A DNA stretch of 64,000 bases from an uncultured archaeon (GCA_964486045.1 CAZALK010000002.1:256001-320000), one strand, 5' to 3'; counted from the first letter of the stretch, positions 16,962 to 62,134 are shown. Translations and numbers: made by a program. Notes: a model not told the origin generated them from the letters alone.

Positions 16962-17996
16962 TTACTCATTAACTCCAAGGTTATAAACAGGAATAGTGAG
17001 TAGTTCAGTAAATGACTTTAAAAATAAATCTTTATCGAACTCATATCCATTTGGAGATGTAGGATTTATTGTTACAGCGATAATTTTTATAGGTTTTAAT
17101 ACTTTTATGATTCCTTCATTCTTTTGGAATTTCATTAGAGTATTATTACTTAAAAATAATTTTGTTCCATCCTTTACCAAAAAAGTGCAACCCTTATACT
17201 TTTGGGTAGATTTCATTAAGTCTTCTAATAACCTATCTGTAATGGCGCCATTTATTACGATATATTTTGAGTCTTCATCTAAATTTTCAACAATTTCTTG
17301 AGCTGAATCTAATGCTGTGGGGACTTTTAAAAACTTAATCGAATTAGTTTTACTGATAATACCTATTTTTGATTTTTTCATTATTTCTTTTGAGAGATTT
17401 ATAGTTTTTTCATTAACCTCTTGCTCCAAATTTAATAAGTTAATAGTATGAATTGTTAAATCTATAACCTCACTCATGTTTCTGGATACCGAAGCTCCTG
17501 TCGAGATGATAGTAGCATCTGAGATTAAAGGAGTTGAATAAGATCTTCTATCAAACGCTCCATCGACCAGTATGAGATCGCAACCAAGGTTTTTTAATTC
17601 TAAACAGATCTTCTTTAATTGGATGTTTATTGAAGGTCCAGCTAATTCAATATACCCCTCCCCTTCTGTTTTTAAGATCATGACCTCTCCTAAGGGAGTA
17701 TAAAATCCTGTATTTTTAATAACCTCAAAATCTATTTTACTATCTTCAAAACATTGTTTTGCTGTAACTACAAAAGTCCCTTTCTTAACATAAATTTGCG
17801 GTTTAGGTAAATCAGTTATAACATCATATTTTTCACCATCTCTCCCAATTGAAGTGAGACCTAAAACATAAGTTTCTTCTATATTTCTTATAATATAATT
17901 TAAGGTAGTCGTTTTAGAAACATTTTTAGCAAGCCCTATTATCGAGATTACTCTTGGTTCATCAGTTTTATTGAAAAAGTCAGATATAAAGTCCAT
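16962..17996 (-). CDS. kamB: KamB-like P-loop accessory protein of lysine 5,6-aminomutase
   Basis: SIIGLAKNVSKTTT, LTSIGRDGE and DGAFDR motifs; located between kamA and kamD as in bacterial kam operons. Confidence 0.7.
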   Translation of the reverse strand: MDFISDFFNKTDEPRVISIIGLAKNVSKTTTLNYIIRNIEETYVLGLTSIGRDGEKYDVITDLPKPQIYVKKGTFVVTAKQCFEDSKIDFEVIKNTGFYTPLGEVMILKTEGEGYIELAGPSINIQLKKICLELKNLGCDLILVDGAFDRRSYSTPLISDATIISTGASVSRNMSEVIDLTIHTINLLNLEQEVNEKTINLSKEIMKKSKIGIISKTNSIKFLKVPTALDSAQEIVENLDEDSKYIVINGAITDRLLEDLMKSTQKYKGCTFLVKDGTKLFLSNNTLMKFQKNEGIIKVLKPIKIIAVTINPTSPNGYEFDKDLFLKSFTELLTIPVYNLGVNE

Positions 17997-18119
17997 TTTC
18001 TCACTAAAAAATTAATGAGTTATTAATAATATGAGAAATAGTTCTTGCCTATTTAAATTTTAAATTAAGTATAAATATTAACTCGATTTCTGTTATAAAT
18101 CTCAATATAATTTACTGTT

Positions 18120-52283: not shown

Positions 52284-54218
52284 GTGAAAAACATGAGTAA
52301 AACTAAGGAAATACCAGTTCCTGATGAAGTTAAAGGATTTACGCAAGTAAGACTTGATGTGGATCTCACTAATGGAAAAATTGGAAAAACTAAACTATCT
52401 AATGAATTCTGTCGCGACTGGATTGGGGGATATGGATTCGGTGCTAAAGTACTTTGGGATGAATGTCCAGCTGGAGTTGACCCCTTAAGCCCAGAAAATG
52501 TATTTGTGTACGCACAAGGTCCATTTCCGGGAACCATCCTTCCTACAAGTTCTAAATATGGTGTATTTGCGAAATCTCCGTTAACTGGTATGTTTGGGAT
52601 GGCAATCTCTTCTGGATCTGTCGGTGCTCAAGCTCGACGCGCTGGAATCAATATGATTGTGATTAAAGGAAAAGCTCCAGAACCTGTTTACTTGGTTGTC
52701 GACGACGATGATTATTATCTCGTTCCTTGTAAAGATAGTGTTTGGGGAAAAGGTTGTTGGGAGACGGAAGAACTTTTAAGAGAAGAATTTCAAGATCAAC
52801 GACTAGGAATAATGACTATAGGGCCAGGAGGAGAACGTGGTGGGTTTATGGGATGTATCACTAATGATCGCAATAGACAGGCTGGAAGAACTGGAATGGG
52901 TGCCGTAATGGGATCCAAAAACCTTAAAGCAATATGTTTTAGAGGTACTAAAGGTATTAGTGTTGCTCATCCTGTTGAGTTCTTCAAACTTGCTAAAAAA
53001 CTAATAAAAGTCGCAAATGGTCCTGCTACAGCAAAATATCGTGATTTAGGCACTCCTGCAGGCATTACAAGTTATAATAAGTTAGGGATGATGCCAATAT
53101 TTAATCATCGTGAAGGTACCTGGGATAAGATTGATGATGGAACTTTTACAGGTGATATACTTAATCAAGACTGGGTAGTTAAAAAGGTTGCTTGTTCACA
53201 ATGCTCGATAGGCTGTGATCACATTACTAAGGTACCAAAAGACCATCCGAATTGGCCTAATCTCTATTCAAGTATTGATCAAGAATTATGTTATAGCTTT
53301 GGAACTGCATGCGGTAATTATGATTGGCCAAGTGTTTTCAAATGTGTCTCACTTGCTGATGATTTGGGTATTGATGCTATAAGTGGAGGGGCCACAGCTG
53401 CCATGGCTTGTGAGTGCTTCGAGGAAGGTATTATCACTAAGAAAGATTTAGGATATGAACTACCTTTTGGCTCTACTATCAATCTAGTAAGATTTACTGA
53501 GGAAATGGCTCTAGGTAAAGGCTTTGCGGGTAAGATTTTTGGAGATGGAACAAGAGTAGCAGGAAAACGATTAGAAGAAATGGGTAGAAAAAATGCAAGC
53601 TATTATGCCATGCATGTAAAAGGTTTAGAAATACCTGCTTTTGATGTACATGGAATGAGTTCATTCGCAGTTGGAATGAGCGTTTCTATTCGTGGTGCAT
53701 GCCACTTGCGTAATGGTTCTTACGGTCTTGATGCTAAAGGTAAATTTGACAGATTTGGTTACGATAAACCAGTTGAAAGAGGGGAAGCAATAAAAGTATT
53801 AGAAGATATCTATGGGATAATTGATTCTTATATCGTTTGCAAATTTACTCGGGGAATTTACGAAAATGATGCTGAAATGGCTAAAGTTTTCGAACTTGTT
53901 ACTGGAATCCCTGTAACTGAGAAATTCATACAACATCGAGGAGAAGCGATAGTAAACCTTTCAAAATGCTTTAATATTCGAGAAGGATGGAAACGAGAAG
54001 ACGATCATCCTCCAGAAAGATTTTTCAAGCAACCTCATACAAGAGGTCCTGCAAAAGGCGTTGTTTTGAAGGAAGATGGATATCAAGAGGTGCTAAGTGG
54101 TTATTTTGAAGCTCGTGGATGGGATACTAAAACAGGAATTCCAACTGATGAGAAGTTAAAATCGCTTGGATTAGACTTTGTTGTTGGTAAATTACAACCT
54201 GCTGGAGGGAAGAAATAA
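52284..54218 (+). CDS. aor: Aldehyde:ferredoxin oxidoreductase family protein
   Basis: KSPLTG, AGRTGMGAVMGSKNLKA, CSQCSIGC, GIDAIS, KGLE and RGACH motifs. Confidence 0.92.
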   Translation: MKNMSKTKEIPVPDEVKGFTQVRLDVDLTNGKIGKTKLSNEFCRDWIGGYGFGAKVLWDECPAGVDPLSPENVFVYAQGPFPGTILPTSSKYGVFAKSPLTGMFGMAISSGSVGAQARRAGINMIVIKGKAPEPVYLVVDDDDYYLVPCKDSVWGKGCWETEELLREEFQDQRLGIMTIGPGGERGGFMGCITNDRNRQAGRTGMGAVMGSKNLKAICFRGTKGISVAHPVEFFKLAKKLIKVANGPATAKYRDLGTPAGITSYNKLGMMPIFNHREGTWDKIDDGTFTGDILNQDWVVKKVACSQCSIGCDHITKVPKDHPNWPNLYSSIDQELCYSFGTACGNYDWPSVFKCVSLADDLGIDAISGGATAAMACECFEEGIITKKDLGYELPFGSTINLVRFTEEMALGKGFAGKIFGDGTRVAGKRLEEMGRKNASYYAMHVKGLEIPAFDVHGMSSFAVGMSVSIRGACHLRNGSYGLDAKGKFDRFGYDKPVERGEAIKVLEDIYGIIDSYIVCKFTRGIYENDAEMAKVFELVTGIPVTEKFIQHRGEAIVNLSKCFNIREGWKREDDHPPERFFKQPHTRGPAKGVVLKEDGYQEVLSGYFEARGWDTKTGIPTDEKLKSLGLDFVVGKLQPAGGKK

Positions 54219-54221
54219 GAA

Positions 54222-54776
54222 ATGTCAAAAACTACCAAAAAGAGAGGCGGAGTTATTCATCAGTTTATTATTGTTGACCCTAATTTATGCAGTGGATGCG
54301 AAACATGCGAATCTGTATGCTCTTTTGTGCATGACGGAGAATTTAATCCAATAAATACAAGAATTCACAGAGTAAGAATTGAACCAGTTTTAAATGTCGC
54401 ATTAGCGTGTCAGAAGTGTGATGATGCGCCATGCGTTCGTAGTTGTCCTGAAAAGGCTTTGGAACAAGATAAAGAAACAGGTTCTATTATTGTAGATGAT
54501 GATAAGTGTAACGGATGTGCTTTTTGTATTCGTGCGTGCGACTTTGGCGTTCTCAACTTACATATACAATCTCAAAAGGCGCTTATTTGTGATCTATGCA
54601 TTACCATGAGAGATGACTATATCAATCCTGAAAGAGGAGAAAAATATCCCGCATGCATTGATCTCTGTCCAAAAGAAGCGATTTCATTGAAAGACGTAGA
54701 ACAAATCGGTGAAGAGAAGCGGATCGATGCTGTCAAACGGCTTTTTGGTGAAATTCTTTCAGAATCCGAAGGATAA
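54222..54776 (+). CDS. Polyferredoxin subunit (4Fe-4S dicluster, DmsB/CooF-like) of the AOR
   Basis: CSGCETCESVC, CQKCDDAPCVRSCP, CNGCAFCIRAC and CDLC...CIDLCP; 3 bp after aor. Confidence 0.9.
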   Translation: MSKTTKKRGGVIHQFIIVDPNLCSGCETCESVCSFVHDGEFNPINTRIHRVRIEPVLNVALACQKCDDAPCVRSCPEKALEQDKETGSIIVDDDKCNGCAFCIRACDFGVLNLHIQSQKALICDLCITMRDDYINPERGEKYPACIDLCPKEAISLKDVEQIGEEKRIDAVKRLFGEILSESEG

Positions 54777-54801
54777 ATCTTACTTTTTTTTATATTCTTT
54801 T
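54722..54801 (+). repeat. 80-bp perfect direct repeat, left copy (3' end of ferredoxin gene + T-tract)
   Basis: Identical to 58101-58180 by base-by-base comparison. Confidence 0.95.
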
Positions 54802-55568
54802 TTTTCTAACTCTTTAATTAATTTTACTATCTTTTTTTCTCCATTAATGCTTAGATAGCATACTCCACTTTTACGGTAGATTAACCTTTTATTCTCCAAG
54901 TTATAAAGTGAGGTTGTTATATTTGCTTTTGAATGAAGTTTAATCATCTCTTTTATTTTATCGATCTCACATCTTCTATCTACGGAAAAGTATAATAAAC
55001 TTAATATTTCATTAGCAGCAGATAGAGAGGCTAATACCAAAATGTCGCCTTCAAATCTCTGAATATGCGGTGTTGGAATTTCAATAATTTCATCAATCAG
55101 TGAATTACTATCCACTAAGCTCATATTTGAATAAATACGGATCATTTCAGCTAAGGACCACTTGGATATACTTATTACATAATAGGCATCAATCTTATTA
55201 GATATAAAATCATTTGAATGTGCACCATCACGAGAATTTCGAAACTTATAAGCAATTTTAAGTGAATCAGCGACAAGTGATTTTACGGATGGTTGAATTT
55301 TTTGAAGTGTTATTGCAGTTTTAAGTCTTTTTCTAATTTTCGTAAGATTTGGTTTAGAAGCGATGCTTTGCCTAGCAGCAAAGTCTAAAACTTGGTAAAA
55401 ATCTTCAATAAATTTGCCACATTTTACAAGAACTATTTCGTAATTATTTAAAAGAAATTCAGAGACCATTTCTTCATATTTATCTACTAACTTATCTACT
55501 TGGTTGATGTTAGCAACAGATTTTAAAATTTTGTTTATTTGTCCTTTTTTTTCCTTTGCAGAAATCAT
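54780..55568 (-). CDS. HEPN-like putative RNase (RNSRDGAH) with C-terminal winged helix
   Basis: R-x6-H in YKFRNSRDGAH within an all-helical domain; C-terminal NITTSLYNLENKRLI...YLSINGEK. Stop codon lies inside the direct repeat. Confidence 0.6.
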   Translation of the reverse strand: MISAKEKKGQINKILKSVANINQVDKLVDKYEEMVSEFLLNNYEIVLVKCGKFIEDFYQVLDFAARQSIASKPNLTKIRKRLKTAITLQKIQPSVKSLVADSLKIAYKFRNSRDGAHSNDFISNKIDAYYVISISKWSLAEMIRIYSNMSLVDSNSLIDEIIEIPTPHIQRFEGDILVLASLSAANEILSLLYFSVDRRCEIDKIKEMIKLHSKANITTSLYNLENKRLIYRKSGVCYLSINGEKKIVKLIKELEKKEYKKK

Positions 55569-55571
55569 TTC

Positions 55572-56054
55572 TTATAGTTGTCCTTTCTTTTTAATTAGTT
55601 CTTCAGCATTTAGGATCCCAGTTTTTGTGATCTCGAACCCTTTTTTATTATCAATTTCAGAAGAGCTTCTTAGTAATCCTCTTCTTATAAGGTTATTCAA
55701 TGTATCTGACATATTTTTAGGTTTAACTGCTCTTGTTTTATTGAATCTATCTTTAATGTGATCAACATTAAAATTTGTAATATTCTCAAATTTAAATAAG
55801 TAGTAACTTATTATTAAAGCCGTATCAGAATATGTACCAGGTCTAATTCCTGCAATTAATTCCGATAATGTTAAGGGTGTCTCTTGCTGAATTTCATTGA
55901 TAATTTTTGGTAAGTGTCTAGTATTTTGAAGTAAATAAGATAAAACAACCTTAAAAGCCTCTAATTTATATTGATTATCAATTTTATCAACAATGCTAAT
56001 TGCAAATTCGATCTTTTCTTTCAATTTTTTTTCAAGTTCATTCATATCTATCAC
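55572..56054 (-). CDS. Winged-helix protein of unknown function
   Basis: PKNMSDTLNNLIRRGLL...FEITKTG wHTH-type tail. Confidence 0.65.
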   Translation of the reverse strand: MIDMNELEKKLKEKIEFAISIVDKIDNQYKLEAFKVVLSYLLQNTRHLPKIINEIQQETPLTLSELIAGIRPGTYSDTALIISYYLFKFENITNFNVDHIKDRFNKTRAVKPKNMSDTLNNLIRRGLLRSSSEIDNKKGFEITKTGILNAEELIKKKGQL

Positions 56055-56066
56055 ATAATAATAATT

Positions 56067-56657
56067 TTAAATCTCTTCTAAGATTGTTTTTAAATAATCT
56101 GGTGCACAATATATATTGACTCTATACTCTCCACGTTCGACTCTTTTTAATTTATCTTCCTTGACTAAGTCAGATAACCTTGAGCGAACTTGTTGGATTT
56201 CTAAATTCAATTTTTCAGATATATATTCAGCTGTCACGGTATCTTCCTTTATTAGATTTTCTTCAAATAAAAGCATTTTTTCAAGAGAAGAAATATAAAT
56301 TTGTTCAACATTTTTTAAATCTTTTAATCTAATTTTATAAATCAAGTCTCCTTCCCTACTAAATTTAAAGAATTTGCTAGCTAACATTTTAGTTTTAGAA
56401 ATAAAACTAGAAAAATCTTCGAAAAGAATTGAATTTTTAATATCATCTGGATTACTAATATTTTCATTTCTTTCATTATGATCTATTACTTTTAATTTGG
56501 GTTTAGGTTCATGAAAATTATTGTTTTGTAATAATTCTCTTTTTTCATCTATGAAGTTTAAAAATTTATCTAAAAAACTAAAAAAATCACCCTCTTTAAT
56601 AGAATCTTCAACTTCTAAATTAAATCCGATATAACTAAAATTTATTTTAAAATTGAT
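56067..56657 (-). CDS. Winged-helix protein, 196 aa with probable non-canonical ATC start (track shows only the last 106 aa)
   Basis: Frame is open 90 codons upstream of ATG 56387; GAGGTG lies 8 nt before the ATC; the N-terminus is homologous to the upstream gene; C-terminal VRSRLSDLVKEDKLKRVERGEY. Confidence 0.65.
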   Translation of the reverse strand: MNFKINFSYIGFNLEVEDSIKEGDFFSFLDKFLNFIDEKRELLQNNNFHEPKPKLKVIDHNERNENISNPDDIKNSILFEDFSSFISKTKMLASKFFKFSREGDLIYKIRLKDLKNVEQIYISSLEKMLLFEENLIKEDTVTAEYISEKLNLEIQQVRSRLSDLVKEDKLKRVERGEYRVNIYCAPDYLKTILEEI

Positions 56658-56662
56658 AGTAT

Positions 56663-57286
56663 TTACACCTCAACAAGTTCGCTCAATTGCTTCAAACATT
56701 TCCTAGCTTCCAAAATCCCTTGCTGAGTAATTCTATAAGTTTTACCATCAATTTTTACAAATTTAGTATAATTTCCTCTAAACGCTTTTGATAAAGAAGT
56801 CGGATCGATGTTTGATTTTGTTAAAATCGGTGTGAGGATTTTTGAGGAAACTTTATCCTCATTATTGATTAAATTATTTTCATAAAGGAGCACTAAAATT
56901 GCTATTCGTTGTTGCTCCGTTCTTGTATCCTTTTCTATTGGTATTAAAATTGGGGGAATTTTTGTTTCAGCTCCAAAATCAAAGATCATTTGAATTTTAT
57001 CAGGTGAAATTCTTGAATCTTTTGCGAGTAGAAAAATCTCATCAGAAGTTTTATCACTTTGAATATTTATTGAATTGGTTAATTTCCCAATTCTCTTTCT
57101 ATAAATTTCATCATGTGCTAAACGAGGTATTTGTGATTCCATCTCTTTCATAGAAATAATACTTTCATTAGATGAAATGAATTCTATTATTCTCTCGAAA
57201 AACTCAAATATATCACCGTCGTACTCAAAATTTTCTACTTCAATAAGTACTCCTTTTACATTCAATTTTATCTTTATATTTGTCAA
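56663..57286 (-). CDS. Hypothetical protein with C-terminal winged-helix-like tail
   Basis: TTG start; C-terminal TYRITQQGILEA; first gene of the island operon. Confidence 0.65.
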   Translation of the reverse strand: MTNIKIKLNVKGVLIEVENFEYDGDIFEFFERIIEFISSNESIISMKEMESQIPRLAHDEIYRKRIGKLTNSINIQSDKTSDEIFLLAKDSRISPDKIQMIFDFGAETKIPPILIPIEKDTRTEQQRIAILVLLYENNLINNEDKVSSKILTPILTKSNIDPTSLSKAFRGNYTKFVKIDGKTYRITQQGILEARKCLKQLSELVEV

Positions 57287-58100
57287 AATTCTAACCTTAA
57301 TGTGTTTATCAATATTTTTAAAGAAAAATCAAATTTAAAGTTTTGTAAAAAACATTTAGATGATTTTTTTTTTGCTTCGTTTATTCTTTTAAATAGGGAA
57401 TTCGATGTCTTTTTTAATAAAATAAACAAGAGTTCATCAATTTCTACATATTCAACGGTATTATGTACATATTATATTCGGATTTATTTTATAGTGTTAA
57501 TATTAATTAGTTAATATATAGGTTGTAGATTTATGTTTAAATTCATTTATAAATAAAACCATTTTTTTTAATAAAAATACAATAGTTTTTATATATTCAA
57601 TATTCCTTTATTTGAGATTAATAAGACTGAATTATCCCTTACAATTATTTGGTTAAGTTTGCAAACAGTTTCTTAGGACAGATTTAACTATGATTTTGGT
57701 TTTTACTAGAATGAAGGGAAAGTGATAACTCGATTTATAAGAAAAAACGAATCAATATCTACTTGTGAGTAGATGTGTATTATTATCTCAAATCTATGTT
57801 ATTGCTAAATACTAACAAACATACTTTTTATTTGAAATTATCTATTCGTTTTACAGAAATTATGATGAATCAAGATTCGTATAATATTATTTTAAAATTT
57901 TTAATTGCTTTTGGTAGATAATAAAAGATCTCAAATAATTTAAAAAGGAGAAGTGGACTAGTTCTATTAAGTTTTTTCGAGTTTATCTAAAAAAACTGAA
58001 GATTAACTATTTGCTTTTTTTTGTTTGATTTTTTTATTTGAATTTTTCAGTTGATTGGGTTGAATTCTCCATCACTGACAAATAACGAACAGATTAAGCA

Positions 58101-58180
58101 GATCGATGCTGTCAAACGGCTTTTTGGTGAAATTCTTTCAGAATCCGAAGGATAAATCTTACTTTTTTTTATATTCTTTT
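58101..58180 (+). repeat. 80-bp perfect direct repeat, right copy
   Basis: Identical to 54722-54801. Confidence 0.95.
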
Positions 58181-58299
58181 ATTTTTAGTTTCTTATATGT
58201 AAATCTTGCTTAATTTAGATTCACATAGAACATTAAAAAAAGTTAATTTTATTAAGACTTACGTCGTTAATTACTTTAAAATTATCTTAGTGAAATTAT

Positions 58300-59436
58300 A
58301 TGGTTGAAATACATGGATTTTGTGATGAGCAATTTAAATCAGTTAAAGAGGCTTTTACTCAAAATTTTGAGGAAGGATTAGAAGTCGGTGCCTCTTTTGC
58401 AGCTACTTTAAACGGTAAACCTGTAATAGACATATGGGCGGGATATAGTGATGCCGCCCAAACAAAACCTTGGGAAAAGGATACCATAGTAAACGTATAT
58501 TCAACGACAAAGGTAATGACTGCAATATGTACACTCATGTGTGTTGATCGAGGATTATTAGATCTCGATGCACCTGTTGCTAAATATTGGCCAGAGTTTG
58601 CTCAAGGAGGTAAAGAGAAAATACCAGTTAGAAATCTCCTCAGCCATACTGCAGGTCTTTCTGGTTTCGATAAACCTATTTCAATAGAAACTTTGTATAA
58701 TTGGGAAAAAGTTGTAAACTTACTGGCTGCGCAAAAACCTTGGTGGGAACCCGGAACTAAAAGTGGTTATCATGCTATTACATTTGGTCATCTTTTAGGC
58801 GAACTAGTACGTCGAGTAACTGGGAAAACTATTGGAACATTTTTCAAAGAAGAAGTAGCAGATCCCCTTGGCGCAGATTTCCATATTGGTCTTCCTGAGG
58901 AACATGATTCTCGGGTTGGTGAATTAATCCCACCTCCCGAAATGGATTTGAGTCAGTTAGGAGCTGTTGATCCAAACTCTGTAGCAGTAAAGACATTTAT
59001 GAGTGTTGCAACTAGTCCTGCAGAAACTAAGACTCGTGCTTGGCGTGCTGCTGAGATTCCTGCCGCTAATGGACATGGAAATGCTCGGGCTGTGGCTAGA
59101 ATAACATCTGCAGTGGCATGTGGTGGTGAAATTGATGGAGTACGTTTATTTTCCTTAGAAACAATAGAAAAAGCTTTAGAGGAACAATCCTATGGAACGG
59201 ATTTAGTACTTATGGTGCCAATACGTTTTGGTTTAGGTCTTGGTCTCCAGGGAAAAGAAGCTCCTATAGGACCGAATCAACGTGTTTTATACTGGGGCGG
59301 ATGGGGAGGTTCTGTAAGTATAATGGATCTTGATGCTAAGTTAAGCATTGCCTATGTTATGAACAAAATGGTATCAACCTTGACAGGAGATCCTCGAAGT
59401 GTAAGACCCATTGAAGCATTATATAACTCATTGTAG
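58300..59436 (+). CDS. Serine hydrolase, class C beta-lactamase / family VIII esterase
   Basis: S-x-x-K (STTK), LLSHTAG, YHAITF and WGGWGGS motifs. Confidence 0.9.
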   Translation: MVEIHGFCDEQFKSVKEAFTQNFEEGLEVGASFAATLNGKPVIDIWAGYSDAAQTKPWEKDTIVNVYSTTKVMTAICTLMCVDRGLLDLDAPVAKYWPEFAQGGKEKIPVRNLLSHTAGLSGFDKPISIETLYNWEKVVNLLAAQKPWWEPGTKSGYHAITFGHLLGELVRRVTGKTIGTFFKEEVADPLGADFHIGLPEEHDSRVGELIPPPEMDLSQLGAVDPNSVAVKTFMSVATSPAETKTRAWRAAEIPAANGHGNARAVARITSAVACGGEIDGVRLFSLETIEKALEEQSYGTDLVLMVPIRFGLGLGLQGKEAPIGPNQRVLYWGGWGGSVSIMDLDAKLSIAYVMNKMVSTLTGDPRSVRPIEALYNSL

Positions 59437-59469
59437 TTCTTCTTTTTTTTTTTGGTAATTCGAGAATCT

Positions 59470-59519
59470 GAATCCGAAGGGTAAAAATTAATTTTTTTTA
59501 ATATCTTTTTTATTTTAGT
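59470..59519 (+). repeat. Degenerate third copy of the distal half of the island repeat
   Basis: GAATCCGAAGG exact; 27 of the first 31 bases match 58141-58171. Confidence 0.6.
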
Positions 59520-59989: not shown

Positions 59990-62134
59990 TTAGCTGAATC
60001 TAATTTTTCCTTTGATTTGTTTATGCAAATAAGACAGTATAATCAACGACGCAATTGAAATAAATAATAGTGAATAACCTGGAATTCCGGGTTCCACAGG
60101 GACTTCCATTTTAGACTCTACAGTGACAATAACGATATCTTCAGCAGTTTCATTGGCATTGTGTATTTCAATGCGATATTCATAAAATCCAACGGGAAGA
60201 GCATCAACGCTAATAACAACAGGTATTCCTGATACCCATGAATCCGTGTTACTAAATGAACTATTTTGATAGACGGTATAGCTATGATTAAAAGTGTAAT
60301 CTGCAGTTATGATCCATGTAATAGTATTACCAGTGCTACCAAACTCGTAATTAATGTCTAATGGATGTGATACTACTATGGAATAATCATAGGGAGCATA
60401 AAAAGCCCATTGGCAAGAATAGAAATCTAGTTTTTCATAAGCATTTGGCTGAAATCCCGTTAAATTGACGTTGTAAGCATAATATAATTTGTCTACATAA
60501 ACCCAAGCCCATGGATAGTCTCTTTCAATCAAGAGTTCTTGAATCCTATCATAATAAGCTTCTCTTAAAGCAGGGTCAGTTTCTATAAGAGCAATTTCCA
60601 TCAAGAGCTGGACATTATCATTTAGAACGGTTGAATTGCCTGATGAAAGCCATCCATTATACTGTGCTCCATTAGAAGCAATAGATCTATTAGTAAACAA
60701 ATTATTAATGTAGTGGCTCGGATCGTTATAAAGTGGTTTCCAATCTAGCCAATAAAGTTCCAACATATCTCTATGACGAATACCTATTTCATATAACCTG
60801 TAAATTAATTCCATGAACGTCATGCCATCATCTATCACTCTAATGCCAATTTTTGACAGATTATTCTGCAGTAAAACTAGTATACCCTCTCGAAAAGTAT
60901 TACCGATGTTATAGCTATAATTAAAAATTGCAAAAGGAGAAGTGGATTCTTGATTTACCCATTCTGTATCGTCACTCACGTTGAACCCCATCCCAAATCC
61001 CATGGATTGCATTATTAGTCTTGCGTGAGTGAGATTAAAGATCGGCGCATCAAATGTGGCATTAGAATACCTAATGCCTAACGGAATAGGAGATTTAGCT
61101 CTTACAGCATTACCCCCTTTAAGGGTATTGATACTGTAATCATAATCCAACGCATAAGAAATTGCCTTCCTAAAGGTTACATTTATCAGGTTGTTATTCA
61201 TCCCTAGGTACTGAAGAATTACACTTTGTGGCCCTTCTTCGAAGGTAAGACCCGCTGTTGAATTTAATACTCCGTAATATGATTCTGATGGATCATATAG
61301 AAAATGGATATCCCCCGCTAATAAAGCCAAACTTCTAGCAGTTGTATTGGTAATTTCTTTAAAAACTAATTCTTCAATACTCGCTTTTCCTTTCCAATAA
61401 TCGTCGAAGGCGTGAAATTTTACATCGACACCCACTTCGTACGAATCATAAACAAAAGGACCTGTGCCAACGATATCTCCAGTATACGTGTCAATGTAAG
61501 TATTCGAGAGCGAAGTTATATATGTAGGTGATTGAATATATGAGCCACTGAAGGCTAACAAAGCTTCAAAAGGTACATAAGGGCCATTCAGGAAAAACGT
61601 TACGGTGTTATCACCATTATCAACAACATTACTTACGATGGGCGTACGATTTGGAAATTCATATAATTCTCTTAACTGTGTTATACTAATCGTGTTGGTG
61701 CCAGTAGTGTTTAAAGCCCAAGCCATTCTATCCCAGTGGGCAACAACAGCAGCCGCATTAAAGTCTGTTCCGTCATGAAATTTAACGCCAGTTCTGAGAG
61801 GTATTGTATATTCATCACCACTAGCATTCCACGTGCCCAAAGCGGAGGCTAGTCGTGGTATTAAGGCAAGATTAGGATCACCTAAATCATAAGCAAATAA
61901 ACCCTCAACTACTTGATCAATTACATCAAAGGCCGGGTAACCCCAAGCTATAATTGGATCAATATCTGCTGGTAAATACGGTAAGCCAACTTTAAAAGGA
62001 ATGACGGGGAATCCAGCACTAGCAACCAAGTTAAGATCTCTAAGATTGTTGTTTCTTTTGAAATTCACAAAACCAATAGAAAAAGATGAAGTCACTACAA
62101 TTATTATTATTATATTTTTAAAACTTTTTTTCAT
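59990..62134 (-). CDS. Family 5 ABC transporter substrate-binding protein with Loki-type C-terminal anchor
   Basis: LRTGVKFHDGTDFNA, VGTGPF and RKAISYALD motifs; C-terminal IPGY + TM + basic tail. Confidence 0.88.
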   Translation of the reverse strand: MKKSFKNIIIIIVVTSSFSIGFVNFKRNNNLRDLNLVASAGFPVIPFKVGLPYLPADIDPIIAWGYPAFDVIDQVVEGLFAYDLGDPNLALIPRLASALGTWNASGDEYTIPLRTGVKFHDGTDFNAAAVVAHWDRMAWALNTTGTNTISITQLRELYEFPNRTPIVSNVVDNGDNTVTFFLNGPYVPFEALLAFSGSYIQSPTYITSLSNTYIDTYTGDIVGTGPFVYDSYEVGVDVKFHAFDDYWKGKASIEELVFKEITNTTARSLALLAGDIHFLYDPSESYYGVLNSTAGLTFEEGPQSVILQYLGMNNNLINVTFRKAISYALDYDYSINTLKGGNAVRAKSPIPLGIRYSNATFDAPIFNLTHARLIMQSMGFGMGFNVSDDTEWVNQESTSPFAIFNYSYNIGNTFREGILVLLQNNLSKIGIRVIDDGMTFMELIYRLYEIGIRHRDMLELYWLDWKPLYNDPSHYINNLFTNRSIASNGAQYNGWLSSGNSTVLNDNVQLLMEIALIETDPALREAYYDRIQELLIERDYPWAWVYVDKLYYAYNVNLTGFQPNAYEKLDFYSCQWAFYAPYDYSIVVSHPLDINYEFGSTGNTITWIITADYTFNHSYTVYQNSSFSNTDSWVSGIPVVISVDALPVGFYEYRIEIHNANETAEDIVIVTVESKMEVPVEPGIPGYSLLFISIASLIILSYLHKQIKGKIRFS

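Follow-up and report, generated by a model that had tools for sequence, protein, structure and literature searches.

The window analysed here, 64,000 nt of DNA from a Lokiarchaeon, carries a 3.3-kb island lodged between a ferredoxin gene and a spare copy of that gene's 3' end. We consider it highly probable that the island is a non-autonomous insertion of the Campbell type, because it lacks a recombinase and because both its layout and its cassette of genes recur elsewhere. That host homologous recombination made the insertion, which is the full statement of our reading, is a tentative proposal to which we give somewhat less than an even chance. A preliminary description of this DNA had already proposed Campbell-type integration. 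The succession of gene, foreign DNA and spare gene end, classically the mark left when a DNA circle recombines into a gene, bears this out in part, as does the presence of the cassette behind another gene in a second genome; no circular form and no empty site within the species came to light. The phenomenon extends beyond this single island. The end of the ferredoxin gene is a hypervariable edge bearing three scars, and roughly 18 loci with the same layout are scattered through the genome.

The target gene encodes a 4Fe-4S ferredoxin subunit of 184 amino acids (54222–54776, plus strand; Pfam Fer4_11 and others). Directly upstream lies the gene for aldehyde:ferredoxin oxidoreductase, AOR (52284–54218, plus strand; Pfam AFOR_N, E = 1e-64, and AFOR_C, 4e-98). 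Orthologs of AOR (78–94% amino acid identity) adjoin the ferredoxin gene at 13 congener loci among those inspected, and the ferredoxin orthologs themselves are 90–95% identical at the amino acid level. The closest of these is found in G013, which shares the terminal SESEG* with our genome (G000). A target other than a tRNA gene had been proposed, correctly: it is the ferredoxin gene end, and no tRNA or other Rfam RNA was matched in the island.

Repeat search and alignment place one copy of the gene end, R1, at 54717–54808 and the spare copy, R2, at 58096–58187, both on the plus strand and resembling attL and attR, respectively. Together they form a 92-nt direct repeat in which 89 of 92 nt (97%) are identical. 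The perfect 80-bp duplication reported earlier (54722–54801 = 58101–58180) is exact and lies inside this longer repeat. It had been described as the last 18 or so ferredoxin codons plus a T-tract; R1 contains codons 166/167–184 (the last 17–19), the TAA stop and a T-rich tail of 25 nt. When the 92-mer is used as the query against the whole 5.18-Mb assembly, it finds R1, R2, a degenerate third copy at 59467–59511 (82% over 45 nt, E = 5e-6) and, on contig C12, just 24 nt of the T-rich tail.

Sequence derived from a ferredoxin gene also extends to the left of R2, a feature missed in the preliminary description. The identical block is abutted there by a diverged ferredoxin 3' stretch with a 9-nt deletion (58074–58100, plus strand; ..LTNNEQIKQ in the alignments). 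The codons for GEE(K/T)R, kept in all 13 full-length ferredoxin copies (12 from congeners and the one in G000), are partly deleted in this stretch. Next to it lies an inverted scrap of a diverged ferredoxin gene (58050–58073, minus strand), encoding the peptide DGEFNPIN that is also encoded at 54333–54356; 19 of 24 nt are identical and all five differences are synonymous. Judged by these alignments, the sequence left of R2, inverted scrap included, is ferredoxin of another lineage.

The island has an older neighbour. Beyond R2 lies a gene for a Beta-lactamase-family serine hydrolase (58300–59436, plus strand; Pfam Beta-lactamase, 4e-75), and behind this gene is R3 (~59446–59515, plus strand), where the ferredoxin gene end occurs a third time in decayed form; R3 retains ..ESEG* and the T-tract and matches R2 at 80% over 49 nt. 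An older insertion here probably brought the hydrolase as its cargo. Orthologs of the hydrolase are patchy: counting G000, 29 of the 54 genomes in the genus have one, and they lie in other contexts, without R2 or R3. To the right of R2 or R3 there is no synteny with any congener, and the insertion region therefore has no defined right border. Across the genus the ferredoxin 3' end marks the edge of a hypervariable region, with different genes beyond it in each congener. In G004, a different insertion at this end is flanked by a 247-nt duplication of 87% identity, and the ferredoxin gene is chimeric: its 5' part is nearest to G019 and its 3' 220 nt are nearest to G002. At the ferredoxin locus itself, the identity of R1 with R2 and the mosaic make-up of the G004 copies keep the comparison from telling native from incoming ends. 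The left boundaries of the three ferredoxin-end scars lie ~57, 35 and 220 nt upstream of the stop codon, and the scars are independent events.

What does the island carry? It consists of four minus-strand winged-helix genes and an AT-rich spacer of 0.8 kb. Its GC content is 25.9%, compared with 31.2% for the genome and 37–42% for the flanking genes, a composition that marks it as foreign. Cargo gene 1 (56663–57286; 207 amino acids) has no assigned family, with no match in Pfam, PHROGs or PADLOC. Its N-terminal beta-hairpin domain has a paralogous counterpart in gene 2, and the C-terminal part resembles a winged helix; the AF2 model (pLDDT 45) is unusable, and orthologs occur in G045 (43%) and G071 (33%). 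Cargo gene 2 (56067–56669) encodes 106 amino acids from the first ATG and ends in an AbiEi/TrmB-like winged helix (PADLOC AbiEi, 2.5e-6). Its frame stays open for ~94 further codons upstream without ATG, GTG or TTG, and the extended frame aligns with a 185-residue G045 ortholog whose start is TTG. Cargo gene 3 (55572–56054; 160 amino acids) has only weak Pfam matches to EarA and RecQ-HTH; it probably ends in a C-terminal winged helix, and its G045 ortholog is 51% identical. The spacer (57287–58049, unstranded; GC ~22%) forms the right end of the island. It encloses no ORF of 70 amino acids or more, although it is overlapped by one of 70 residues (57302–57514) and three of fewer than 55, and no gene relic, integrase remnant, or Rfam or tRNA match is detectable in it.

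Cargo gene 4 (54780–55568; 262 amino acids) lies next to the ferredoxin gene and takes its stop codon and its final seven to nine codons from R1, as had been noticed before. The accompanying claim that this gene stays intact in both the integrated and the circular form holds by geometry. The tail itself is not conserved: KKEYKKK occurs in none of the 12 homologs aligned, which suggests chance read-through into the T-tract of the ferredoxin gene and not a conserved design. The protein had been labelled HEPN. In an alignment of 13 sequences R110 is invariant and H117 is present in at least 90%, with the spacing Rx6H, and the AF2 model (pLDDT 86) predicts a helical, HEPN-like N-domain followed by a C-terminal winged helix of the MarR/PadR type (wHTH Z 11–12). 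The best match of the N-domain is the C-terminal domain of LinB (Z 9.9, 122 aligned, rmsd 3.9), and comparison with the AF_0298 HEPN gives a Foldseek probability of 0.89 and a TM of 0.48; both sets of scores lie below the level that is decisive for helical bundles. The PADLOC CARF3 model matches at 3.5e-6, and there is no Pfam match, to HEPN or otherwise. The HEPN assignment is plausible. Only five close relatives of the protein exist among 5.8e9 proteins.

The island was described earlier as free of integrases and transposases, and searches with Pfam, PHROGs, PADLOC and tblastn agree. None of the four ORFs matches a recombinase in the first three of these, the island proteins give no Resolvase or Phage_integrase signal, and no transposase is matched in Pfam or PHROGs. 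With the genome's own tyrosine recombinases as tblastn queries, no integrase remnant appears in 54700–58300. The genome encodes five such recombinases, four of them non-Xer-like and none in the island, and no serine recombinase.

The cassette is absent from all 15 of the congener ferredoxin loci inspected. Among the other genomes of the genus, strong matches to the 262- and 207-residue proteins occur only in G045, at a different locus, and a weak match in G006 (E = 4e-5) is likewise at another locus. The full cassette is found outside G000 only in G045 (Promethearchaeota LW40_87, JAHPZE010000017.1), with the four genes in identical order and at 45–60% amino acid identity. There, a FucI-like gene is followed by the cassette, a 0.55-kb spacer and a FucI 3' fragment. 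The duplicated FucI sequences are 72% identical over 556 nt aligned without gaps, and the fragment is still open over 186 amino acids. Compared with the G000 ortholog, the fragment is 76% identical, the present gene end 70% and the gene body 74%; by this measure the displaced fragment is demonstrably the native 3' end. FucI in G000 directly abuts the gene found beyond the fragment in G045, and G000 thus represents the empty site. The G045 copy, only distantly related, has no integrase and its spacer is similar to that of the island. To judge from these two copies, the cassette stays together as a unit at two different targets.

The layout itself is widespread in G000. About 18 loci read as a gene, 0.9–16 kb of cargo and a downstream 3' fragment of the gene, compared with about four mirrored loci of the 5' type. 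The cargo is heterogeneous, and many of the islets are ~1 kb long with a single gene. Only one locus, on contig C23, has a tyrosine integrase: its island of 8.2 kb encodes a 413-residue enzyme adjoining the fragment. Mismatches between gene-end copies fall at the three codon positions in the ratio 71:43:213. Few gaps, if any, interrupt the alignments between the displaced fragments and the gene copies, and several of the fragments are still open (143 amino acids at C7). No boundary motif common to these loci is visible by eye. At both the integrase-less islet on C7 and the integrase-bearing island on C23 the fragment is native, and congeners show precise empty sites. At C7, G045 and C23 the displaced fragment is native nearly from its first base and the present gene end is foreign, 70–78% identical to congeners; such comparisons show the native status of the displaced fragment at these three comparable loci. 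The copies at the diverged loci are 72–77% identical, and the longest exact run at C7 is 17 nt. Ordinary homologous recombination by the host would be inefficient at such identities, a counterpoint to its involvement at these loci.

How might the island have reached its present position? The cassette would have travelled together with a ferredoxin 3' end on a DNA circle, or on a linear piece whose two ends were directed into the same target. By recombining once with the ferredoxin gene of the chromosome, within the stretch common to both, this DNA would leave the cargo between the gene, now completed by R1, and the spare copy R2. The serine-hydrolase gene and R3 may stem from a similar event at an earlier time, in which case the newer cargo is the one nearer the gene. 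In the version that we tentatively prefer, host homologous recombination would act across the 80-nt identical block, and the carried gene end would serve as an exchangeable address. That the intermediate was circular or ends-in, that there was one crossover, and which enzyme made it are inferences on our part. Guidance by homology is suggested by the abruptness with which the perfect 80-nt block meets the strongly diverged ferredoxin stretch and the inverted scrap, by the use of another gene's end by the G045 cassette, by the unequal left boundaries of the three ferredoxin-end scars, and by the lack of a common motif, as judged by eye, at the boundaries of the many targets.

The same geometry would result if a site-specific tyrosine integrase acted in trans; the island would then be a satellite or mobilizable mini-element and the 80-mer would hold the att core. 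A regenerated gene with a displaced native fragment is the textbook signature of an integrase (PMC4383910), and the C23 island, with its integrase next to the fragment and empty sites in congeners, has exactly such a layout. Fragments that are native from near their first base at C7, G045 and C23 fit an exchange with a fixed boundary over few identical bases. Because the fragment at these loci is native almost throughout, the crossover there falls at its left boundary, as a site-specific integrase would place it, and this counts against host recombination. The ferredoxin end, however, harbours no integrase-bearing element in G000 or in 15 congeners, its three scars differ in their left boundaries, and the island spacer shares no sequence with the elements on C23, C25, C29 and C1. 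Moreover, at least 16 different integrase-less targets are implausible for the four non-Xer-like tyrosine recombinases. For the island we favour a homology-guided crossover over an integrase in trans, which we rate as possible but rather unlikely. A third reading holds that the island is the remnant of an autonomous element whose integrase was deleted after integration, a CIME in the strict sense. CIMEs and degenerate elements that keep their att scars are common (PMC5704250; 10.1101/2020.12.28.424599), and the 0.8-kb non-coding spacer sits where the C23 island has its integrase. Yet neither this spacer nor the G045 copy with its similar spacer holds a trace of an integrase, many islets of this layout comprise just ~1 kb and a single gene, and the repeats are still identical at 80 of 80 positions, so the event looks recent. 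Decay of this kind is unlikely.

Three further readings fare worse. An assembler could have threaded together an empty-site chromosome and a free 3.4-kb circle sharing the 80-mer; the exact repeat of 80 nt exceeds the apparent k-mer overlap of 55 nt between contig ends in this assembly, so the integrated and the circle-plus-empty-site topologies give the same graph. But reads of ordinary length span 80 nt, and R3 and the diverged flank left of R2 belong to unique sequence. The integrated layout in G045 is no graph artefact, because its repeats are only 72% identical. We give such a mis-join a slim chance, and since the circle would carry the gene end anyway, the biology would stand. The cassette could instead be autonomous if one of its four proteins were an unrecognized recombinase. 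Its genes have been kept together at two targets, winged helices apparently enable all four proteins to bind DNA, and two of the proteins have no known family. Against this, the 262-residue protein is a helical bundle with a MarR-type winged helix and no recombinase fold among its matches, the other proteins (160–207 amino acids) have short N-domains, and the cargo in other islets of this layout is quite different; an enzyme of the island's own is very improbable. Direct repeats can also come from slippage or unequal exchange, and a local tandem duplication or unequal crossing-over would involve no foreign DNA. The DNA between the repeats nevertheless bears no relation to its surroundings, has a lower GC content and recurs at a different locus in a second species, and the ferredoxin sequence of another lineage and the inverted scrap left of R2 contradict this origin, which we find scarcely credible.

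Homology-guided insertion, if it holds for the island, may have a wider bearing. Lokiarchaeia might gain many accessory genes by an integrase-free 'gene-end displacement', in which cassettes carry the 3' end of a host gene as their address; we regard this generalization as doubtful. Were it true, host recombination would put a cassette behind the matching gene, leaving that gene intact and its old end as a scar. The repeats would permit later pop-out and onward spread, and the island would be a fresh example (80/80) of a class of mobile elements defined by address and not by recombinase.

Among known systems the island appears, by analogy, closest to CIMEs and to the partial-tRNA scars of tycheposons. 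As in CIMEs (PMC5704250), repeats resembling attL and attR flank DNA without integration and transfer genes, and a second segment of cargo adjoins it in tandem at the same gene's 3' end. Unlike CIMEs, the island has no autonomous partner integrated in tandem, and it resides in an archaeal host without a conjugation context. Descent from a decayed ICE or IME seems unlikely, because the repeats are perfect and relics are absent. In the tycheposon arrays of Prochlorococcus (10.1101/2020.12.28.424599), as here, successive integrations at one site push older elements outward, parted only by partial copies of the target, and small genes for adaptation or defence make up the cargo. What defines tycheposons, however, is a tyrosine or large serine recombinase of their own, and their targets are mostly tRNA genes, whereas the island has no recombinase and a ferredoxin target. 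Islander/TIGER islands (PMC4383910) share with it a target gene kept whole by incoming sequence and a spare, direct 3' fragment at the far end (R2, 3.3 kb downstream); the native fragments at the comparable loci C7, C23 and G045 and the precise empty sites for these loci in relatives are further likenesses. The differences are the lack of an integrase inside the island, the protein-coding target in place of a tRNA or tmRNA gene, the Asgard archaeal host and the three scars with differing boundaries at one gene.

Displacement without an integrase also occurs at the C-termini of rhs and polymorphic toxins (PMC2935791), where homologous incoming DNA supplies a new 3' end with downstream genes and the old 3' end stays downstream as an orphan fragment. 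There the new end is a new toxin tip and the homology lies in a conserved core; here the peptide is the same for both ends, and the payload has no relation to the target gene. In 'pop-in' insertion-duplication, a circle with a chromosomal fragment integrates by a single crossover, the duplicated segment flanks the insert, and the event is reversible by 'pop-out'. Its layout is exactly that of the island, although it is known as a laboratory procedure in archaeal and bacterial genetics; we know of no description of a natural cassette population that spreads by pop-in.

A transposon or IS element with a target-site duplication was rejected, given the lack of a transposase and of inverted ends (score 7 against a shuffle mean of 8); the comparable duplications are 45–~560 nt long and diverged. 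A diversity-generating retroelement was likewise dismissed, as the island ORFs have no RT domain and the repeats are identical over 80 nt. With respect to integrons, this part of contig C2 lacks all five tyrosine recombinases, and the R repeat represents a gene's coding end, not an imperfect palindrome.

The end of a 184-aa 4Fe-4S ferredoxin gene (54222-54776), directly preceded by an aldehyde:ferredoxin oxidoreductase (AOR) gene, occurs twice in the window, which spans 256001-320000 of contig C2. A repeat search identifies a direct repeat of 92 nt at 97% identity: R1 at 54717-54808 and R2 at 58096-58187. It covers ferredoxin codons 166/167-184, the stop codon and a T-tract of 25 nt. As the preliminary description stated, 80 bp of this gene end and T-tract are perfectly duplicated; 54722-54801 and 58101-58180 agree at 80 of 80 positions. 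That description also proposed a search for further copies, which we ran with the 92-mer over the whole assembly (5.18 Mb in 45 contigs, Lokiarchaeial, Promethearchaeota). Besides R1 and R2 it contains only a decayed copy, R3, at 59467-59511 (82% over 45 nt, E 5e-6), adjoining the 3' side of a beta-lactamase-family serine-hydrolase gene (58300-59436), and a 24-nt match on contig C12 to the T-rich tail alone.

The 3.3-kb island between R1 and R2 holds four minus-strand ORFs of 262, 160, 106 and 207 aa, followed by about 0.8 kb without a convincing gene. At 25.9% GC it is richer in AT than the genome (31.2% GC) and the flanking genes (37-42%). The island had been described as lacking an integrase or transposase, and this is borne out: none of its ORFs matches a recombinase or transposase in Pfam, PHROGs or PADLOC. 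A genome-wide search for recombinases, also suggested earlier, turned up five tyrosine recombinases and no serine recombinase. The 0.8-kb spacer resembles none of the integrase-bearing elements on contigs C23, C25, C29 and C1 beyond chance matches of 15-19 nt. Several familiar classes of element can be set aside. A transposon is rejected because there is no transposase match and no terminal inverted repeat was found at the island ends; a tRNA-targeted element, because the island has no tRNA or Rfam match and the target is the protein-coding ferredoxin gene; and a DGR, because the ORFs lack an RT domain and the repeats are identical over 80 nt. An integron cassette stays a candidate reading: none of the five tyrosine recombinases maps to this stretch of C2, and the repeat is a coding gene end, not an imperfect palindrome.

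Left of R2 the DNA is still ferredoxin-derived. At 58074-58100 it can still be aligned with the ferredoxin (..SLTNNEQIKQ vs ..SLKDVEQIGEEKR) but is strongly diverged and lacks 9 nt; the GEE(K/T)R codons partly lost here are kept in all 13 full-length ferredoxin copies, 12 from congeners and the resident one. Read in reverse complement, the adjoining 58050-58073 gives DGEFNPIN, a peptide that the ferredoxin gene encodes at 54333-54356; 19 of 24 nucleotides match and all five differences are synonymous. The diverged stretch and this inverted scrap make the right arm of the island a mosaic. It contains scrambled ferredoxin pieces from another lineage, with a sharp boundary to the 80 nt that match the resident gene. 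The resident ferredoxin shares its SESEG* end with that of the closest congener, G013, whose downstream DNA matches R1 and R2 equally well. The native copy at this site cannot be assigned by comparison, since R1 and R2 are identical and both copies in another congener, G004, are mosaic.

How could a gene acquire a second end 3.3 kb downstream? Incoming DNA would carry a copy of the target's 3' end together with cargo and undergo a single recombination with the target; one end copy would complete the gene and the other would remain downstream. A single crossover that yields insertion-duplication is a standard procedure of archaeal genetics. The preliminary description proposed Campbell-type integration, and its geometry is right: one end copy completes the gene and a spare lies 3.3 kb on, but the mechanism is unproven. 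We consider it probable that the layout is that of a non-autonomous Campbell-type insertion. Integrative islands are classically recognised by a regenerated gene with a displaced fragment (PMC4383910), CIMEs are derivatives that lack an integrase but retain att sites (PMC5704250), and rhs genes offer a precedent for integrase-free displacement of 3' ends (PMC2935791).

The same cassette of four genes occurs in G045 (Promethearchaeota archaeon LW40_87, JAHPZE010000017.1), in the same order and at 45-60% amino acid identity. There, a FucI-like gene is followed by a 624-aa gene, the four genes, a 0.55 kb spacer and a 186-aa FucI-like 3' fragment. An ungapped alignment of 556 nt puts the two FucI copies at 72% identity, and their mismatches fall 43:17:103 by codon position. 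With repeats this dissimilar, the G045 layout is no assembly artefact and is hence biological. To the FucI ortholog on contig C10 of our genome, the G045 fragment shows 76% identity, more than the present end of the gene (70%) or its body (74%); on C10, FucI is directly followed by a methylase gene, the same gene that lies beyond the fragment in G045. The fragment in G045 is therefore the displaced native end, and the present end came with the island. The C10 locus shows the empty site for the G045 insertion, and the cassette has entered two different protein-coding genes, one for ferredoxin and one FucI-like. No further copies were found in viral contigs or in two scans of metagenome contigs; GTDB representative contigs returned G045 alone, plus a spurious 35-residue bacterial match, and a phylum-wide search returned just distant homologs of the 262-aa protein. 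The 624-aa gene of G045 (L045:7637-9511) has no Pfam domain and no name; it has some 20 relatives of 570-900 aa at 60-87% identity in Promethearchaeota and marine-sediment metagenomes.

The layout recurs across our genome. We compared the assembly with itself and kept nearby direct repeats with one copy inside a long ORF and the other outside; the resulting counts are approximate, coming from a simple filter of our own and including one paralog cluster. The type with a gene 3' end and a fragment downstream accounts for 25 pairs at about 18 loci, and the mirrored 5' type, roughly fourfold rarer, for 9 pairs at about 4 loci. Examples are C4:66881-68711, C7:57459-59353, C12:1921-3760, C13:131481-133182, C15:54335-55872, C15:88342-91387 and C6:144732-153588. 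Repeats measure 45-371 nt at 77-98% identity and spacers 0.9-16 kb; similarity starts abruptly within the gene and stops at or just past the stop codon. The cargo is mixed: PIN toxins, an MFS transporter, an M28 peptidase, a transglutaminase-like protein, a histidine kinase and many unknowns. Over all loci together, the two copies differ at first, second and third codon positions in the ratio 71:43:213, the fragments show few or no gaps relative to the gene copies, and several are still open frames. The copies have thus diverged as coding sequence in separate lineages rather than decayed in place. The 1.15-kb integrase-less islet on C7 behaves like the C23 island described below: its fragment is 88%/83% identical to G049/G013 and the present end 77%/78%, and 1.1-1.5 kb of downstream synteny begins right after the fragment.

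A recombinase is present at only one of these loci, C23:49447-60122 (L054), where a conserved VWA-domain gene is followed by an island of 8.2 kb. Its 413-aa tyrosine integrase (C23:57646-58887) adjoins a displaced 3' fragment of 195 nt at 82% identity. The fragment is nearer than the present end to most congeners, and the DNA past it matches what follows the gene in congeners, their site being empty. This is a bona fide integrase-bearing element that targets a protein-coding gene in a Lokiarchaeon. An integrase 42% identical to it lies at C25:2013-3233. Contig C29 (25,965 nt) carries another tyrosine recombinase of 302 aa (17158-18066); its first ~1,035 nt recur at 100% in its last 935 nt (1-640 = 25031-25670 and 741-1035 = 25671-25965, a 100-nt shift in offset). 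Nothing else in the assembly resembles it, no gene-end mimic was found on it, and it probably represents a circular plasmid or virus some 25 kb in size.

The ferredoxin end is itself a place of repeated change. In congeners that have the AOR-ferredoxin pair, the genes right after the ferredoxin stop differ in every one: MFS transporter, TPR proteins, GNAT, cupin, DUF998, a B12-binding/URO-D pair, FGGY kinase. Beyond the variable genes, most of these loci share a conserved block of three genes; in our genome that block is on C17, and the end of C2, the contig of the window, overlaps C13 and C42, not C17. The proposed comparison with relatives thus revealed variable genes after the stop, but no congener is syntenic to the right of R2 or R3, and the right border of the inserted region is not definable this way. 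In G004 (C95:48093-50054 joined to C103:1-3278 through a tandem-repeat, LVIVD-like surface-protein gene; L032, L037), the ferredoxin gene is followed by ~4.4 kb of other, unrelated cargo and then by a 247-nt, 87% copy of its 3' end. The gene is chimeric: its 5' part is nearest G019 (89%) and its last 220 nt nearest G002 (91%). The three ferredoxin-end scars begin at different points, ~57, 35 and 220 nt before the stop. The serine-hydrolase gene between R2 and R3 is patchily distributed, in 29 of 54 genomes of the genus, ours included; the other genomes have it at different locations, with neither R2 nor R3. The simplest reading of the order of R2 and R3 is serial accretion, in which the hydrolase segment would have arrived first, leaving R3, and the four-gene cassette later, leaving R2; tycheposon arrays have likewise been described as serial accretion (10.1101/2020.12.28.424599). 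Right of R3, a family-5 solute-binding protein gene (59990-62134, minus strand) has no ortholog in 53 congeners, so the DNA beyond R3 is also accessory; the gene is most similar to paralogs on C3 (73%) and C15 (71%) of our own genome. Two ferredoxin orthologs, G016:C31:18716-19287 and G018:C24:120942-121516, align as two segments that abut near residues 103-106 and, in G016, are separated by a stop codon; a frameshift or mini-intron could account for this.

What brought the cassette to the ferredoxin gene? We favour host recombination guided by the carried gene end over an integrase acting in trans, and hold this view tentatively. The incoming DNA would be a circle or an ends-in fragment. The perfect block of 80 nt stops sharply at old, diverged ferredoxin sequence, the scars differ in their starts, and in G045 the same cassette travels with the end of another gene. 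At least 16 integrase-less targets stand against four candidate integrases; no motif common to the left boundaries of 16 loci was seen by eye, and no integrase was found after the ferredoxin stop at the 15 congener loci inspected. A site-specific integrase supplied in trans is rather unlikely, yet it has a precedent in C23, where the same layout comes with a resident integrase. Moreover, fragments at the diverged loci are native from nearly their first base onward, which implies exchange at a fixed boundary between sequences only 70-77% alike.

Other explanations of the focal island carry less weight. We doubt that it is a decayed autonomous element; relics of the genome's five tyrosine recombinases were sought throughout it, the 0.8-kb spacer included, and none was found. 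A mis-join of the chromosome and a free circle is very unlikely. Contig ends overlap by 55 nt, less than the exact 80-nt repeat, so for the focal copy integration rests on how the assembler resolved the repeat; the G045 layout, however, has repeats far too different for such an error. We give still less credence to a recombinase hidden among the cargo proteins, no recombinase fold being among the structural matches of the 262-aa protein. Least credible of all is a local duplication: the intervening DNA is foreign, as its lower GC and the presence of the cassette at another locus in G045 indicate, and a tandem duplication is rejected on these grounds.

The focal island is CIME-like and integrase-less; it sits behind a protein-coding gene of an Asgard archaeon, at that gene's 3' end. 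Asgard archaea, the prokaryotes most closely related to eukaryotes, have large, flexible genomes whose uptake of genes is little understood. Work on other Asgard lineages has so far described integrase-bearing elements, viruses and aloposons (PMC11529989, PMC8813620). Together with its roughly 18 look-alikes in one genome, the focal locus suggests that genes are often added directly after intact ones, in most cases with no recombinase on site. Should the carried gene end guide insertion, mobility would here take a simple form, independent of recombinases, that could carry defence or toxin modules, transporters and enzymes between species. If integrases act in trans, the genome would instead house a large population of satellite mini-islands, unreported for Asgard archaea. 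In either case the scars, each a native fragment and a foreign replacement end, date and orient transfers and make it possible to trace gene flow in metagenome-assembled genomes. The interest lies chiefly in the recurrence of the layout, which makes recombinase-independent, address-guided gene gain testable from read data.

The cassette itself looks like a small defence or toxin-type module. In the AlphaFold model of the 262-aa protein (pLDDT 86), a helical N-domain precedes a winged helix of the MarR/PadR type at the C-terminus, the latter with structural matches at Z 11-12. The N-domain best matches LinB, a nucleotidyltransferase, in that enzyme's helical C-domain (Z 9.9), and AF_0298, a HEPN protein (Foldseek prob 0.89). 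Among 13 aligned homologs R110 is invariant and H117 present in at least 90%, giving Rx6H spacing. The earlier naming of this gene as HEPN is, on this model and motif, plausible and no firmer. The gene does end inside R1, as had been noted, its last residues, KKEYKKK, being read off the complement of the ferredoxin T-tract; the tail is missing from all 12 aligned homologs, however, and its position within the repeat looks incidental. The remaining three proteins likewise seem to have winged helices at their C-termini, as AbiEi/TrmB-like matches indicate for the 106-aa ORF, and weak matches and reading of the sequences for the 160- and 207-aa proteins. The model of the 207-aa protein (pLDDT 45) was too poor for structure searching, and an ESM Atlas search on the cargo proteins gave only unnamed bacterial clusters. 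Upstream of the 106-aa ORF, ~94 open codons (56388-56669, minus strand) without ATG, GTG or TTG align both with the N-terminus of the 207-aa protein next to it and with the N-terminal half of its 185-aa G045 ortholog, whose start codon is TTG. The true length of the 106-aa ORF is about 200 aa; either a non-canonical start codon is in use or the start has been lost.

The 262-aa family is very rare, with five close members among 5.8 billion proteins; the homologs from this search include four from metagenomes, and the phylum-wide search found distant homologs in seven other Asgard genomes. In one genome of another Asgard family (G256:C51:1546-5548, L079), a distant homolog and a neighbour resembling the 160-aa protein lie between 282-nt direct repeats at 84% identity, one of which overlaps the 3' end of a 402-aa gene.
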